Source: a virus
Lineage: Duplodnaviria; Heunggongvirae; Uroviricota; Caudoviricetes
DNA: 9,520 nt
Strand: one strand, 5' to 3'
Virus record (IMG/VR): IMGVR_UViG_2711768020_000003
Shown here one piece after another: positions 1,818-9,427 of this stretch (position 1 is its first letter; every line of letters begins with the position of its first letter). The notes under the pieces were generated by a model that saw nothing but the letters and a program-made list of their open reading frames with translations, did not search any database and was not told where the DNA came from. The position numbers and the translations under genes are program-made.

Positions 1818-2188
1818 TGCGCCATGAGTTTATTTTACCTTATCCGCCGACGGTGAATACTTACTGGCGACGTCGTGGCAGCACATATTTTGTATCAAAA
1901 GTTGGTGAGCGTTATCGCCGTGATGTGACGCTAATTGTTCGCCAGCAGCGGCTGAAATTAAACCTGTCCGGAAGGCTGGCGATAAAGATTATTGCAGAGC
2001 CACCGGATAAGCGCCGTCGTGACCTGGACAATATCCTGAAAGCACCACTGGATGCGCTGACGCATGCCGGACTACTCATAGACGACGAGCAGTTTGATGA
2101 AATCAATATTGTGCGCGGTCAGCTCGTTCCTGGTGGGCGACTGGGCGTGAAGATTTATGAAATCACAGGTGATAACGATGGCGCGTGA
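1817..2188 (+). CDS. rusA: Holliday-junction resolvase RusA (crossover junction endodeoxyribonuclease)
   Basis: 123-aa ORF with RusA-family hallmarks: N-terminal [15 protein letters not shown], acidic catalytic region RRRDLDN and [14 protein letters not shown], and C-terminal GGRL. Size matches RusA (about 120 aa). GGAGG lies about 10 nt upstream of the ATG. Confidence 0.9.
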
Positions 2189-2564
2189 TATTCAGCAGGT
2201 TATGGAACGGTGGGGGGCTTGGGCTGCAAACACTCATGAAGATGTATCCTGGGCGTCGATCGCTGCTGGTTTTAAAGGGTTAATTCCGTCGAAAGTGAAA
2301 TCACGCCCTCAGTGTTCTGATGATGATGCAATGATAATTTGTGGCTGTATGGCCCGGTTGAACAAGAAAAATCAGGATTTGCACGATTTGCTGGTGGATT
2401 ATTACGTAGGTGGAATGACTTTTATGAGTCTGGCACGGAAACATGGGTGTTCGGATACCTGTATTGGCAAGCGCCTGCAGAAAGCGGAAGGGGTTATTGA
2501 TGGCATGTTGATGATGCTTGATATCCGGCTGGAGATGGACAGATACGTAGAACGAATTATGTAG
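2178..2564 (+). CDS. Late-gene antitermination protein Q (small Q family, QuuD-like as in DLP12-type prophages)
   Basis: ORF containing [18 protein letters not shown]...[24 protein letters not shown]...LLVDYYV...MTFMSLA...[15 protein letters not shown], which I recognise as the small Q antiterminator family. Start taken as ATG 2178 (AGGTGA 6 nt upstream), not the in-frame ATG 2157. It overlaps the rusA 3' end by 11 nt and a candidate late promoter begins 5 nt after its stop, the canonical Q-PR' arrangement. Confidence 0.85.
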
Positions 2565-2568
2565 GTGC

Positions 2569-2598
2569 TTGACCAGACACATTGTCCGGGGCTATATT
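2569..2598 (+). promoter_or_regulatory. Candidate sigma70 late promoter (PR'-like) immediately downstream of Q
   Basis: -35 TTGACC (2569-2574), 17-nt spacer, -10 CTATAT/TATATT (2592-2598). An intrinsic terminator follows about 60-80 nt downstream, mirroring the lambda PR'-qut-tR' layout. Confidence 0.55.
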
Positions 2599-2656
2599 CC
2601 TCACGCGCCAGCAAAATCTGGCGTCGGGATTGGAACCCCGGATAGAGACCGCGACA

Positions 2657-2684
2657 GACACACGCCGCGAGCGTGTTTTTTATT
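2657..2684 (+). terminator. Rho-independent terminator (tR'-like) ending a short leader transcript
   Basis: Stem ACACGC (2660-2665), loop CGCGA, stem GCGTGT (2671-2676), followed by TTTTTTATT. Confidence 0.6.
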
Positions 2685-2809
2685 GTCGTATGCACGCGCA
2701 CATCTGAATTATGGTGGGGCGCATGGGGGAGCTGAAAAGCTCGCCGGTCGGTTTCCCGGTAGTTCCAACCCTGTGCGTCTCACCACCCGATGATTGGAAC
2801 CTGACGGTG

Positions 2810-2838
2810 TTGACAGTTTCAGGTTTGCAGTTTACATT
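2810..2838 (+). promoter_or_regulatory. Second candidate sigma70 promoter upstream of the ORF6N gene
   Basis: -35 TTGACA (2810-2815), 17-nt spacer, -10 TACATT (2833-2838). A weak hairpin plus a run of 7 T (about 2885-2911) follows. Confidence 0.35.
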
Positions 2839-3044
2839 TCCCCGCGGTGCTCAAAACACCTCGAAAGCGGTATCCACACCCGATAGCCATGTGGTTTTTT
2901 TGTGTCCAGAATTCTTGGTTTATGACCGGGTGTGCGGCTAATACAATACCAGCAATGGAAATACGCCCGCCGACTTTCGACGGTTTTGAGCGCCCGGTCA
3001 CCCTCTCAAAAGGGGTAAATCAAAATATTCGAAAGGACATGTCT

Positions 3045-3608
3045 ATGAATCGCACGTCTATTGAAAAACTCCCGTCACTTACGCATAACCATCTTCCTGT
3101 CATGACAACAGAGCTGCTGGCTGATTTGTACGGAACAGAGCGCCAGCGTTTGACAAACAATTTCAATCGAAACAAAGAACGGTTTATAGAAGGTAAACAT
3201 TTTTTCCTGATAGAAGGTGATGCGTTACGAGAGTTGAAGAACGAAAACTCTTTAAGAGTTTCTGTGAAAATTGCCCGTAACGTTCGCTCCCTCATCCTCT
3301 GGACAGAACGTGGCGCAGCCCGTCACGCCAAAATGCTCGAAACCGATCAGGCGTGGGAAGTGTTCGAAAAACTGGAAGACTGTTATTTCAACCAGAAACA
3401 GCCACCAGCGGCACAAAACACATCTATCGAAAATGATGGATGCGCATTACTGAGCCACTTCGATAAACACGGTCAGGTTGAGTTCACGGAAAAGGTACCC
3501 GCCGATGCGATGGTATGTACTCTGGAACGGTTTAAATTTTATCTGGAGCAACACGGGTGGATCGTTGCCCGTAAAGAGCAACTGGTGGAGCGGTTGATGC
3601 GGTTTTAA
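3045..3608 (+). CDS. ORF6N-domain (KilA-N/Bro-N-like) putative DNA-binding protein, antirepressor-like, with uncharacterised C-terminal domain
   Basis: N-terminal region TTELLADLYGTERQRLTNNFNRNKERFIEGKHFFLIEGDALRELK...ARNVRSLILWTERGAARHAKMLETDQAWEVF matches the ORF6N pattern as I recall it. Start preferred at ATG 3045 (AAAGGA about 7 nt upstream); ATG 3039 is the alternative. The long upstream extension in the ORF track (from 2847) is rejected. An intrinsic terminator follows the stop. Confidence 0.75.
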   Translation: MNRTSIEKLPSLTHNHLPVMTTELLADLYGTERQRLTNNFNRNKERFIEGKHFFLIEGDALRELKNENSLRVSVKIARNVRSLILWTERGAARHAKMLETDQAWEVFEKLEDCYFNQKQPPAAQNTSIENDGCALLSHFDKHGQVEFTEKVPADAMVCTLERFKFYLEQHGWIVARKEQLVERLMRF

Positions 3609-3683
3609 AAATTTTTTCCGAAAACTTTACGATCGTAAAAAGTTGAATATCCTGTTAAGAGTGGTTACTACGCCACACAGCTT

Positions 3684-3709
3684 AAACCCGCCGATGAGCG
3701 GGTTTTTTT
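3684..3709 (+). terminator. Rho-independent terminator after the ORF6N gene
   Basis: AAACCCGC (3684-3691), loop CGATGA, GCGGGTTT (3698-3705), then a T run through 3709. Confidence 0.6.
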
Positions 3710-3759
3710 ATACCTGAAAAACGGCACAGGACGTTAAACGTGCTGGTGGTCAGATGAGT

Positions 3760-3788
3760 TTGCAGATGTGATGACATATGGTTATTAT
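3760..3788 (+). promoter_or_regulatory. Candidate sigma70 promoter for the tRNA array
   Basis: -35 TTGCAG (3760-3765), 17-nt spacer, -10 TATTAT (3783-3788); first tRNA starts at 3798. Confidence 0.5.
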
Positions 3789-3797
3789 TCTGCCTCC

Positions 3798-3874
3798 GGC
3801 CCTTTAGCTCAGTTGGTCAGAGCGAGCGACTCATAATCGCCAGGTCGCTGGTTCAAGTCCAGCAAGGGCCACCA
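3798..3874 (+). tRNA. tRNA-Ile (anticodon CAU, lysidine-type, ileX/ileZ-like, decodes AUA)
   Basis: Manual cloverleaf: 7-bp acceptor stem GGCCCTT/AAGGGCC, anticodon loop CTCATAA, T-arm GGTTCAAGTCC, encoded CCA. Anticodon arm and T-arm resemble E. coli tRNA-Ile2 from memory, not elongator tRNA-Met. Confidence 0.8.
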
Positions 3875-3875
3875 A

Positions 3876-3952
3876 CCACCACTAGCTCATCCGGATAGAG
3901 CATCAACCTTCTAAGTTGACGGTGCGAGGTTCGAGTCCTCGGTGGTGGGCCA
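3876..3952 (+). tRNA. tRNA-Arg (anticodon UCU, decodes AGA/AGG)
   Basis: Manual fold: acceptor CCACCAC/GTGGTGG, D-stem GCTC/GAGC, anticodon stem TCAAC/GTTGA with loop CTTCTAA, T-stem CGAGG/CCTCG with loop TTCGAGT, discriminator G, encoded CCA. Confidence 0.82.
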
Positions 3953-3954
3953 GC

Positions 3955-4030
<76 letters not shown>

Positions 4031-4033
4031 TAT

Positions 4034-4108
<75 letters not shown>

Positions 4109-4254
4109 GCGAGATTTGAGACGAAGGTTGTTATTTGCACTGACACAATATTGTGTGGGAATGTCTGACTCCTTACCATCTCCTGTTCTGTGATGTTGTT
4201 TTGTTGCAGTTCCAGTGCTCTTTTTTCAGCACCAGAATGATGAATCATCAGTCC

Positions 4255-4489
4255 NNNNNNNNNNNNNNNNNNNNNNNNNNNNNNNNNNNNNNNNNNNNNN
4301 NNNNNNNNNNNNNNNNNNNNNNNNNNNNNNNNNNNNNNNNNNNNNNNNNNNNNNNNNNNNNNNNNNNNNNNNNNNNNNNNNNNNNNNNNNNNNNNNNNNN
4401 NNNNNNNNNNNNNNNNNNNNNNNNNNNNNNNNNNNNNNNNNNNNNNNNNNNNNNNNNNNNNNNNNNNNNNNNNNNNNNNNNNNNNNNNN
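4255..4489. other. Run of 235 N (assembly gap or masked sequence)
   Basis: Directly visible. Hides the 5' part of the holin gene and its upstream region. Confidence 1.
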
Positions 4490-4591
4490 ATTGGTGTGCT
4501 GGGAAGTCTGCTTCTGGGGCTTCTGACTTATCTGACAAATCTGTATTTCAAAATAAGAGAAGACAAGCGTAAGGCTGCGAGAGGTGAATAA
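4490..4591 (+). CDS. Holin, 3' fragment (phage 21 S21-type pinholin-like); 5' end lies in the N run
   Basis: Frame-2 translation [33 protein letters not shown]-stop matches the C-terminus of the phage 21 class II holin as I recall it. Stop TAA (4589-4591) overlaps the ATG of the next gene (TAATG). Confidence 0.8.
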
Positions 4592-4748
4592 TGTCGCCAT
4601 CATTACGCAAGGCTGTTGCAGCTGCTATTGGTGGTGGGGCTGTTGCTATAGCATCTGTGTTAATCACTGGCCCAGGTGGTAACGATGGTCTGGAAGGTGT
4701 CAGCTACATACCATACAAAGATATCATTGGTGTATGGACTGTATGTCA
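4591..4748 (+). CDS. SAR endolysin (phage 21 R21-like lysozyme), 5' part; 3' part lies in the N run
   Basis: N-terminus [52 protein letters not shown] has a Gly/Ala-rich weakly hydrophobic signal-anchor-release segment followed by the lysozyme catalytic-region start, closely resembling R21. It follows the holin with overlapping stop and start. Confidence 0.85.
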
Positions 4749-5161
4749 NNNNNNNNNNNNNNNNNNNNNNNNNNNNNNNNNNNNNNNNNNNNNNNNNNNN
4801 NNNNNNNNNNNNNNNNNNNNNNNNNNNNNNNNNNNNNNNNNNNNNNNNNNNNNNNNNNNNNNNNNNNNNNNNNNNNNNNNNNNNNNNNNNNNNNNNNNNN
4901 NNNNNNNNNNNNNNNNNNNNNNNNNNNNNNNNNNNNNNNNNNNNNNNNNNNNNNNNNNNNNNNNNNNNNNNNNNNNNNNNNNNNNNNNNNNNNNNNNNNN
5001 NNNNNNNNNNNNNNNNNNNNNNNNNNNNNNNNNNNNNNNNNNNNNNNNNNNNNNNNNNNNNNNNNNNNNNNNNNNNNNNNNNNNNNNNNNNNNNNNNNNN
5101 NNNNNNNNNNNNNNNNNNNNNNNNNNNNNNNNNNNNNNNNNNNNNNNNNNNNNNNNNNNNN
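4749..5161. other. Run of 413 N (assembly gap or masked sequence)
   Basis: Directly visible. Hides the 3' part of the endolysin and the 5' parts of Rz and Rz1. Confidence 1.
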
Positions 5162-8088: not shown

Positions 8089-8271
8089 ATGATCATGCTG
8101 ATTCTCGCGCCTCTGGTGGGCGTGCTGGGTGCGCTTTTGCTGGCGTATGGTGCCTGGCTGATTTATCCCCCGGCGGGTTTTGTTGTTGCCGGGGCGCTGT
8201 GCCTGTTCTGGTCGTGGCTGGTGGCGCGATATCTCGACCGTACACGGCAGTCTGTCGGCGGAGGTAAATAG
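8089..8271 (+). CDS. Hypothetical small membrane protein (60 aa, two predicted transmembrane helices)
   Basis: GAGGT (8080-8084) precedes ATG 8089 (second ATG at 8095). Two hydrophobic segments, [23 protein letters not shown] and [19 protein letters not shown]. Stop TAG (8269-8271) overlaps the GTG at 8271 that has a strong ribosome-binding site for the portal reading frame. The ORF is short, so coding status is not certain. Confidence 0.4.
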
Positions 8272-9427
8272 TGTTCTTTTCGGGATTATTTCAACGAAAA
8301 AGCGATGTGCCGGTGACCACGCCAGCAGAACTGCTGATGCTATCGGGCTGTCATACGACACCTATACCGGAAAGCGGATCAGTAGCCAGCGGGCCATGCG
8401 CCTGACGGCGGTCTATTCTTGCGTCAGGGTGCTGGCAGAGTCTGTTGGTATGCTGCCCTGCAGTCTCTACAAAATCAGCGGTACCCTGAAAACACGGGCG
8501 GTGGATGAACGACTGCATAAGTTGGTTTCGGCAAAACCTAATGGCTACATGACACCGCAGGAATTCTGGGAGCTGGTTATTGTCTGCCTGTGTCTACGGG
8601 GGAATTTTTACGCCTACAAGGTAAAGGCACTGGGAGAAGTGGTGGAGCTTCTTCCGATAGATCCGGGCTGTGTGGAACCGAAGCTGAACAGCCAGTGGCA
8701 GCCGGTTTATCAGGTGACGTTTCCGGATGGTTCCGTGGATGTGTTGACCCAGAATGAAATCTGGCATGTGCGCACCCTGACGCTGGATGGACTTGTCGGG
8801 CTGAATCCCATTGCGTATGCGCGTGAGGCCATTTCACTGGCAGCGGCAACCGAGGAGCACGGTGCCAGGTTGTTTAGTAATGGTGCGGTGACATCCGGTG
8901 TGTTGCGTACGGAACAAAAGCTCACGCCGGATGCTTACGAGCGTCTGAAGAAAGATTTTGAGGAGTGTCACACGGGGCTTGGCAATGCTCACCGCCCGAT
9001 GATTCTGGAAATGGGGCTGGACTGGAAGTCGATGGCGCTGAACGCCGAGGACAGTCAGTTCCTGGAAACCCGCAAGTTTCAGCTGGAAGAAATCTGTCGT
9101 CTGTTCCGGGTGCCGTTGCACATGGTGCAGAACACCGATCGCGCCACCTTCAACAATATCGAAGAGCTGGGGCTGGGATTTATCAACTATTCACTGGTGC
9201 CGTATCTGACCCGCATCGAACAGCGGATCAACACCGGACTGGTACGAAAAAGTAAGCAGGGCGTTTATTACGCCAAATTTAACGCCGGGGCGTTACTGCG
9301 CGGGGATATGAAGTCCCGTTTTGAAGCCTACGCCACCGGGATCAACTGGGGAATTTACTCTTCCAATGACTGCCGCGACCTGGAAGATATGAATCCGCGT
9401 CCCGGTGGTGTAATGCCGATCAGTTAA
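8271..9427 (+). CDS. Portal protein, HK97 family; apparent frameshift near the 5' end (main body 8396-9427 in a different frame from the best start at 8271)
   Basis: Body contains the portal-typical N-proximal motif RLTAVYSCVRVLAESVGMLP and is about 340-385 aa, downstream of TerL. The only strong initiation signal is GGAGGT (8260-8265) then GTG 8271 after a 5-nt spacer, but that frame stops at TGA 8403-8405 after 44 codons (MFFSGLFQRKSDVPVTTPAELLML...). The body frame has no ATG before 8396 and only TTG codons at 8180-8188 with no ribosome-binding site. Confidence 0.8.

Follow-up and report, generated by a model that had tools for sequence, protein, structure and literature searches.

An ORF6N-domain gene behind two antisense-RNA units in a Shigella prophage, a probable AnrP-type antirepressor gene

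The gene at 3045–3608 and the protein it encodes

The DNA analyzed here (hereafter the window) is a stretch of 9,520 nucleotides (nt) from the virus record IMGVR_UViG_2711768020_000003 (Caudoviricetes), and its open reading frame (ORF) at positions 3045–3608, which encodes a protein of 187 amino acid (aa) residues with an ORF6N domain, is the subject of this study together with the RNA elements directly upstream of it. The window matches Shigella chromosomes at 100% identity and is part of a lambdoid prophage, with genes for a DnaB-type helicase, RusA, Q, the ORF, four tRNAs, lysis proteins (partly masked), an HNH protein, the small and large terminase subunits, and a portal protein. The features between Q and the tRNA genes are as follows.

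2157–2564, plus strand: late antiterminator gene Q, 135 aa (Pfam Phage_antitermQ, E = 2.7e-52)
2569–2598, plus strand: promoter-like site of an isrK-type leader, TTGACC-18-TATATT (10 of 12 consensus matches)
2592–2644, plus strand: c4-a1b1 motif (Rfam, 50.1 bits; gathering score 46.7)
2605–2681, plus strand: isrK small RNA (sRNA), overlapping c4-a1b1 (Rfam, 77.5 bits; gathering score 50)
2630–2636, plus strand: box TTGGAAC in the c4-a1b1/isrK leader, complementary to the C4 RNA
2660–2676 plus T run, plus strand: intrinsic terminator of isrK (terminator prediction)
2707–2790, plus strand: C4-class antisense RNA, the equivalent of "orf45"/STnc1160 of Gifsy-1 (Rfam C4, 71.0 bits; gathering score 45)
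2810–2838, plus strand: second promoter-like site, TTGACA-17-TACATT, of the Xcc1-type module (consensus match; same hexamers in Escherichia coli EC12)
2845–2901, plus strand: leader of the second module, decoy boxes followed by a terminator-like hairpin and T run (2874–2901)
2849–2857, plus strand: decoy box a1, GCTCAAAAC (exact 9-nt complementarity to the Xcc1 element)
2861–2867, plus strand: decoy box b1, TCGAAAG (exact 7-nt complementarity to the Xcc1 element)
2924–3007, plus strand: sRNA-Xcc1-class RNA (Rfam RF02221, 77.4 bits; gathering score 53; model positions 1–87 of 87)
2974–2980, plus strand: box b' of the Xcc1 element, CTTTCGA, pairing with b2 and b1
2983–2991, plus strand: box a' of the Xcc1 element, GTTTTGAGC, pairing with a2 and a1
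3020–3025, plus strand: target box a2, TCAAAA, complementary to a'
3029–3035, plus strand: target box b2, TCGAAAG, complementary to b' and overlapping the Shine-Dalgarno (SD) sequence AAAGGA (3032–3037)
3045–3608, plus strand: antirepressor-type gene of the AnrP/PHROG 2379 family, 187 aa; stop codon 3606–3608
3626–3653, plus strand: late promoter PR', −35 TTTACG (3626–3631) and −10 TATCCT (3648–3653), by homology
3684–3712, plus strand: terminator hairpin and T run behind PR' (terminator prediction)
3798–4108, plus strand: four phage tRNA genes with anticodons CAT, TCT, TGT, and TCC (ARAGORN; Rfam tRNA)

The reading frame is open up to the stop codon in the ORF listing, and the SD sequence lies 7 nt ahead of the ATG at 3045. 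The E. coli EC12 homolog has only one start codon, and this ATG aligned with it. Two other starts were rejected: the in-frame ATG at 3039, which leaves an SD spacing of 1 nt and aligns poorly with homologs, and the GTG at 2847, a mechanical call that yields a 253-aa ORF, which lies inside the RNA elements and fails on SD spacing and homolog alignment. The ORF is a genuine gene rather than a chance reading frame, because a homolog search found 4661 homologs of its product, the exact protein is present on at least 1000 Shigella contigs, and the ratio of nonsynonymous to synonymous substitution rates against the EC12 ortholog was 0.13 (central helices, 0.03; C-terminal domain, 0.15). The family as a whole is under purifying selection, and genes for ORF6N domain-containing proteins were found in 1158 of 5426 complete E. 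coli genomes, about a fifth.

The protein divides into the following parts.

aa 13–97 (nt 3081–3335), plus strand: ORF6N domain (Pfam PF10543)
aa 83–116 (nt 3291–3392), plus strand: nearly invariant helices (alignment of relatives)
aa 119–130, plus strand: low-confidence linker (AlphaFold model)
aa 131–187 (nt 3435–3605), plus strand: C-terminal domain of beta-hairpin, helix, and helix (AlphaFold model)

A preliminary description of this DNA, made from the sequence alone, had proposed an N-terminal ORF6N-like module, and the Pfam match bears this out (score, 74.4 bits; cut-off, 27.8; aa 13–97 on model positions 5–86 of 86). Apart from ORF6N, Pfam gave no match at E ≤ 1 and nothing for the last 77 aa, for which NCBIfam also returned no match. 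The whole protein matched PHROG 2379 end to end (E = 4.4e-85; aa 2–187 on profile positions 3–187 of 187); the name of this PHROG, "anti-repressor," is an annotation and not a tested function. In the alignment of relatives we distinguished three parts, namely, a variable N-terminal part, the nearly invariant stretch LILWTERGAARHAKMLETDQAWEVFEKLEDCYF, and a variable C-terminal domain with conserved G143, V157, E161, and G171–W172. The AlphaFold model (mean pLDDT, the predicted local distance difference test score, 78.7) contains an alpha/beta N-terminal domain, two long helices, the linker, and the C-terminal domain, which is modeled as a beta-hairpin (133–152), a helix (160–169), a GWIV stretch, and a last helix (177–186), in all a beta-beta-alpha-(beta)-alpha arrangement. 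Foldseek with the full model gave nothing below E = 0.87 against the PDB, and sequence and profile searches of the PDB with the protein were empty. Structural matches in BFVD were obtained via the N-terminal domain only and carry the names KilA-N, antirepressor, and regulatory.

The C-terminal domain had been called unrecognised in the preliminary description. It is indeed absent from Pfam and from solved structures; it is, however, a recurrent module, found in PHROGs 2379, 25059, 995, 22471, and 340. An exhaustive profile search with this domain found only 40 representative proteins among 1.84 billion, in which it stood either alone (about 85 aa) or after ORF6N, Rha, Phage_ASH, AntA, P22_AR_N, or Bro-N modules. 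This search served better than a word-indexed search with an 84-aa C-terminal query, which returned mostly gene fragments. E. coli genomes contain many mosaics that have the N-terminal half alone or the C-terminal half alone in common with the protein. Conversely, in the close relative AntB of phage Nil2 an ORF6N front is carried on P22_AR_C. The domain is thus not an orphan; it is narrowly distributed and moves among N-terminal modules of the antirepressor type.

Two RNA units upstream of the gene

The preliminary description had also regarded the gene as stand-alone cargo. This does not hold: in the interval that separates Q from the ORF, Rfam recognized four elements, each scoring above its gathering threshold (c4-a1b1, isrK, C4, and sRNA-Xcc1), so that the gene closes a compact cassette that matches antQ-isrK-orf45-anrP of the Salmonella prophage Gifsy-1.

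The unit next to the gene contains the sRNA-Xcc1-class RNA. This element has a C4-like layout, with a long closing stem round internal hairpins followed by an ACCC tail, and its boxes a' and b' are complementary both to a1/b1 in the upstream leader and to a2/b2 in front of the gene, where b2 overlaps the SD sequence. The duplex of the leader with the Xcc1 element scored z = −4.8 against shuffles. The end of b2 is 9 nt from the start codon, and counterpart boxes in 13 Xcc1-type loci lie at 6 to 10 nt. Over these 13 loci b' takes about ten different sequences, and yet an exactly complementary box of 6 to 8 nt sits on the SD sequence in 12 of them (5 nt in L014); most also have a matching leader box, and a' varies likewise. 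Cognate duplexes at the Xcc1-type loci had an energy of −18.0 kcal/mol versus −12.3 kcal/mol for non-cognate ones, a difference reached in 0 of 5000 permutations. Because the variable boxes change together with the complementary boxes in the SD region and the leader, we read the Xcc1 element as a C4-type antisense RNA; the boxes behave as would be expected of one. The match of variable boxes to their cognate targets suggests specificity types.

Homology to the antB module of Nil2 starts 8 nt downstream of the second promoter-like site, and a "promoter sequence by homology" is annotated at the corresponding place in Nil2. A candidate LexA box over this site, CTGACGGTGTTGACAG (2801–2816), fits CTG-N10-CAG and was rejected, since its centre is not AT-rich and the EC12 ortholog lacks the 5' CTG.

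The first unit contains isrK and the C4 RNA. Its promoter-like site is placed like PisrK of Gifsy-1 (PMC4825925), with the isrK model starting at 2605, and from their sequences we infer promoter activity for both this site and that at 2810–2838. The C4 RNA has a predicted folding energy of −44.9 kcal/mol, and its single-stranded GTTCCAA (2762–2768) is complementary to 2630–2636 in the leader and to 2794–2800 downstream. The C4 box and its target co-vary over 15 loci, and cognate duplexes at the C4-type loci had an energy of −26.0 kcal/mol versus −19.6 kcal/mol for non-cognate ones (0 of 5000 permutations). The whole-sequence duplex energy of C4 with isrK was not significant (z = −1.5); this value is uninformative because long GC-rich stems dominate it, and the box-level and cross-locus analyses are the informative ones. 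A 76-aa ORF at 2711–2941, the counterpart of orf45, was treated as non-coding because it has no family match and coincides with the C4 RNA and a promoter.

The downstream box TTGGAAC (2794–2800) of the first C4 RNA is kept, with no gene behind it. Nil2 has an isrK-C4 unit in front of antA and a promoter-Xcc1 unit in front of antB; positions 2563–2797 of the window match the first of these units and 2846–3395 the second. Relative to Nil2, antA and its SD-proximal box are gone after the first C4 RNA, and the sequence that follows provides the −35 element (TTGACA) of the second promoter. The first unit thus lacks an ant gene of its own, and the whole looks like a tandem pair minus the first ant.

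Both RNA types recur in front of related genes. Of 28 ORF6N loci from other species, 10 had isrK and C4 and 9 had Xcc1 (19 of 28), and in most of these the elements end about 35 to 55 nt before the start codon. In the window and at the loci L001, L002, L011, L013–L015, L018, L020, L024, L025, and L027, the Xcc1 element was located 20 to 40 nt upstream of the ORF6N gene. In the Rfam output, C4 and c4-a1b1 belong to clan CL00128, and sRNA-Xcc1 carries no clan label. The description of the Rfam family sRNA-Xcc1 is that of a trans-acting sRNA carried by integrons in Xanthomonas. An sRNA-Xcc1 element upstream of an ORF6N gene was noted earlier, without interpretation, in a paper on APSE phages (PMC7313666).

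Position between Q and PR' and comparison with known systems

The Q gene has about 77% nt identity to that of H-19B/933W up to position 2539. It ends in ...YVERIM, without the approximately 18 C-terminal residues of the 933W/H-19B-type Q; in the Sakai phage, which has a 933W-type Q, the 3' end of Q overlaps the −35 element of PR'. Positions 3626–3714 of the window have 84 to 85% identity to DNA of H-19B, Lahn1, and Sakai Sp5, in each of which this DNA immediately follows Q. In Sakai, the PR' start was mapped by differential RNA sequencing, and the tR' end lies 258 nt from it (PMC7547250). With a coordinate shift of 142 nt between genome versions, the Sakai start fits just downstream of TTTACG-16-TATCAT and the terminator end falls near position 1266602. 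As 3626–3714 is homologous to the post-Q DNA that contains the mapped Sakai promoter, we place PR' of the window at 3626–3653 by homology. The hairpin 3' of the gene was considered as the gene's own terminator and rejected, because it is part of the PR' leader kept after Q in H-19B and Sakai.

By this placement the cassette (2565–3625) is flanked by Q and PR' and precedes the late-operon slot in which stx and other morons are actually found. Morons of the Shiga toxin (Stx) type lie downstream of PR'/tR' and the tRNA genes. The tRNA genes at 3798–4108 mark the start of the late region; their counterpart in the Sakai Stx2 phage is ileZ (CAT)-argN-argO, and approximately 320 nt that hold StxS and tR' in Sakai are missing from the window. 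The earlier assignment of the gene to a toxin/moron locus is therefore to be corrected: the cassette precedes PR', no toxin gene follows, and the masked stretches are lysis genes. Runs of N cover 4255–4489 (holin and upstream region) and 4749–5161 (endolysin and Rz genes), and are shorter than the DNA they stand for: in the identical locus L039, the corresponding flanks are 664 and 625 nt apart. Toxin cargo within these runs was rejected, since identical genomes show holin, endolysin, and Rz there.

The best match of the protein in a named phage was STM2616 of Gifsy-1 (187 aa; 49% identity over aa 3–184, E = 6e-58, co-linear). STM2616 lies directly downstream of Q, and its position and size are as described for AnrP (SL2578) (PMC4825925). 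A profile of the C-terminal domain alone (58 columns) still matched AnrP aa 141–184 at 21 to 25 bits, which shows that this domain is common to both proteins, although the identity there is only about 25 to 30%, as estimated from the pairwise alignment. The preliminary description had left the role of the gene open. For the homolog it is not: expression of AnrP raised antQ and SL2581 mRNA and induced Gifsy-1 (Hershko-Shalev et al. 2016, PMC4825925). As one result that would speak against its view, that description had named a match of the entire protein to a well-characterised antirepressor whose C-terminal domain is known. This holds only by half: a characterised homolog does exist, but the homolog's C-terminal domain is undescribed.

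The two loci share the order Q, c4-a1b1/isrK, C4, and gene, with one or more tRNA genes after the gene, and the arrangement in EC12 is exactly that of the window. The window differs from Gifsy-1 by an extra unit of promoter, leader, and sRNA-Xcc1-class RNA (2810–3007), by a Q of the H-19B/933W type where Gifsy-1 has one of the phage 82 type, and by a Stx-phage-type PR' and terminator downstream, in the place of isrJ. In Gifsy-1 (L004), isrJ (4588–4662) directly follows anrP and occupies the place that PR' and its short terminated transcript have in Stx phages and in the window; it could be that IsrJ is the Gifsy-1 transcript running from PR' to tR', a counterpart of StxS. A further difference concerns translation. 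In Gifsy-1, IsrK activates translation of orf45, which is coupled to anrP via an AUGA overlap (PMC4825925). The window has no such overlap: the orf45-like ORF at 2711–2941 stops 104 nt short of the start codon, the ATGA at 3045–3048 is not the end of any ORF that has a start codon of its own, and no small ORF abuts the start.

In phages P1 and P7, as summarised in PMC7313666 from Citron and Schuster 1990, c4 RNA pairs with a1/b1 and a2/b2 and controls ant. The window resembles this immI arrangement in that a C4-class RNA and, downstream of it, an ant-type gene are encoded by one strand and in that the RNA has a' and b' boxes complementary to upstream a1/b1 and downstream a2/b2, with b2 on the ribosome-binding site. 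It differs in that it has no icd-like ORF (the 37 nt between the Xcc1 element and the start codon contain no ORF), so that the target is the SD sequence of the ant gene itself, and in that the protein combines ORF6N with a new C-terminal domain. P1-like processing and Rho-dependent polarity are assumed for the window by analogy.

The antirepressors of Stx phages (Phi24B Ant, and AntA and AntB of 2851/Nil2) share the ORF6N domain and core, with 54 to 67% aa identity over the first 124 to 157 aa; the N-terminal 124 aa of the protein are 66 to 67% identical to Stx-phage Ant proteins, whose upstream RNA modules have 78 to 94% nt identity to those of the window. Their C-terminal halves are different: in Nil2 AntB, the ORF6N front is followed by P22_AR_C (Pfam), and Phi24B Ant was reported to resemble the C-terminus of P22 Ant (PMC3064807). 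The location of their ant genes, near int or within the nin region, differs as well from that of the gene in the window, which is flanked by Q and PR'. In a Phi24B ant knockout, PR' activity was lower after induction (PMC3064807). The Stx2a phage phi346 (L003) has two 225-aa "anti-repressor" genes near int (1700–2377 and 3722–4399), of which only the second has ORF6N and an upstream isrK-C4; the first has no Pfam match.

P22 Ant (P22_AR_N and P22_AR_C) is similar in the role proposed here, inactivation of a CI-type repressor, and one representative protein joins P22_AR_N to a C-terminal domain of the window's type. By contrast with P22, in which ant is controlled by Arc/Mnt and sar RNA, the window has no arc or mnt gene and a C4-class RNA as control, and the protein has neither P22_AR_N nor P22_AR_C (Pfam). 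By sequence the protein thus belongs to the ORF6N family, PHROG 2379, AnrP type, and not to the P22 Ant family.

Proposed function and alternative explanations

We propose that the gene encodes a pro-lytic antirepressor regulator of the AnrP type and is the output of an immI-like cassette locked by C4-class RNA, and we consider this reading probable. Among the roles listed in the preliminary description (antirepressor, superinfection-exclusion regulator, or effector of an unknown system), antirepressor is the best supported. The two tandem units would follow one layout: promoter, short terminated decoy leader, C4-class RNA, and target boxes. While the switch is repressed, the Xcc1-class RNA, presumably cut from read-through transcripts by analogy with P1 C4, would bind a2/b2 and block ribosome binding, so that no protein is made. 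The lock could be opened by the decoy leader RNA, whose a1/b1 boxes would titrate the antisense RNA, or alternatively by antiterminated early transcription through Q into the cassette. The protein would then raise early and Q-operon transcription, most likely via a neutralised CI-type repressor. Because early read-through of Q would enter the cassette, a positive feedback toward lysis is plausible, in which Ant leads to derepression and derepression to more Q.

Several points weigh against this proposal. In the literature we found no ORF6N-type protein with direct repressor binding, AnrP included (PMC4825925). The complementary boxes span only 6 to 9 nt, the two promoters and the terminator of the leader are predicted at consensus level, and the leader hairpin is weak. 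The orf45 coupling of Gifsy-1 cannot apply here, because the orf45-like ORF ends too far upstream. The model of the C-terminal domain has moderate confidence (pLDDT about 70 to 85) and no fold match, and casting this domain as a target-recognition module is conjecture. Finally, no cI/cro region or repressor gene was found within 7 kb upstream in the source genomes, in which the prophage is broken by insertion sequences (IS), and the gene may currently be functionless.

The foremost alternative is that the protein is a sequence-specific DNA-binding transcription factor, in which the ORF6N/KilA-N domain binds DNA and the C-terminal domain dimerises; it would act directly on early or Q-operon promoters as an activator, or drive the repressor off its DNA, with no binding to the repressor protein. 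The best BFVD matches to the model, "KilA-N DNA-binding domain-containing" and "regulatory" proteins, agree with this explanation, as does the AnrP study, which puts the effect down to "activated transcription activity" and shows no repressor binding (PMC4825925), and a small shuffled C-terminal domain would be compatible with an oligomerisation module. However, the same domain also occurs on AntA and P22_AR_N modules, which are named after antirepressors, and the c4-controlled gene of P1 is a true antirepressor according to Citron and Schuster 1990, as cited in PMC7313666. Operator-like repeats, for which no search was made, were not seen. We regard a transcription factor as unlikely, though it is the main competitor of the antirepressor reading.

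Somewhat less probable still is that the gene is a non-functional relic, kept only via a defective prophage that became fixed in a clonal Shigella lineage. In the Shigella source genomes (L037–L042), an IS3-family element lies directly upstream of dnaB, with cI/cro missing, and an IS4 element follows the portal gene; the N-terminus of the portal protein is out of frame with its body, and the sequence is identical across many assemblies. As the immunity region of the prophage has been lost, the gene may act in this genome only in trans on other prophages, or else be idle. Against decay, the ORF and its SD sequence are intact, as are the two C4-class RNAs and every box-target pair, and the family shows purifying selection. 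According to Lemire et al. 2011 (cited in PMC12922286), Gifsy antirepressors can moreover work on other prophages in trans. This explanation bears on the current use of the gene and not on its identity.

An accessory effector of anti-phage defence or superinfection exclusion is very improbable: the interval from Q to the lysis genes is a common site for accessory genes and PADLOC gave partial, weak matches to PDC-S05 (E = 1.4e-7 to 2e-3), but these are confined to the ORF6N part (aa 19–115, with none in the C-terminal domain), PDC-S05 is a candidate family without a library description, the gene lies upstream of PR' within an immI-like regulatory cassette, and its characterised homologs promote induction.

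Two further, linked proposals are put forward tentatively, at somewhat below even chances. The first is that Xcc1 represents a second class of C4-type phage "immunity" RNA, whose variable a' and b' boxes would occlude the SD sequences of ORF6N-type antirepressor genes and define specificity types. The second is that the C-terminal domain is an interchangeable repressor-recognition module, in antirepressors that would be built from swappable N-terminal modules (ORF6N, Rha, AntA, P22_AR_N, Bro-N, and Ash). The type of phage switch cassette, the AnrP locus, and the c4-ant logic of P1 are already known; modestly new are the undescribed shuffled C-terminal domain, the comparative evidence for Xcc1 as a C4-class lock, and the variant with tandem units between Q and PR'.

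For annotation, genes now labeled "ORF6N domain-containing protein" could be read as AnrP-type pro-lytic regulators under C4-class antisense locks. If the Xcc1-type lock is real, sRNA-Xcc1 matches in phages and integrons would acquire a concrete function, and the variable boxes would serve as a simple sequence predictor of cross-regulated induction between prophages. It would also bear on the induction of Stx phages, because the same modules are present in Nil2, 2851, and Phi24B-like phages. The C-terminal domain, a small, conserved module without an assigned structure, is of interest for structural and interaction work.

At the far end of the window, the body of the portal protein (Pfam Phage_portal) is encoded by a 415-aa ORF that starts from TTG (8180–9427), in a frame different from that of a short ORF at 8271–8405. 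The short ORF directly follows a 60-aa gene and starts where the portal gene of EC12 starts, which suggests that the portal gene of the window is a frameshifted pseudogene.

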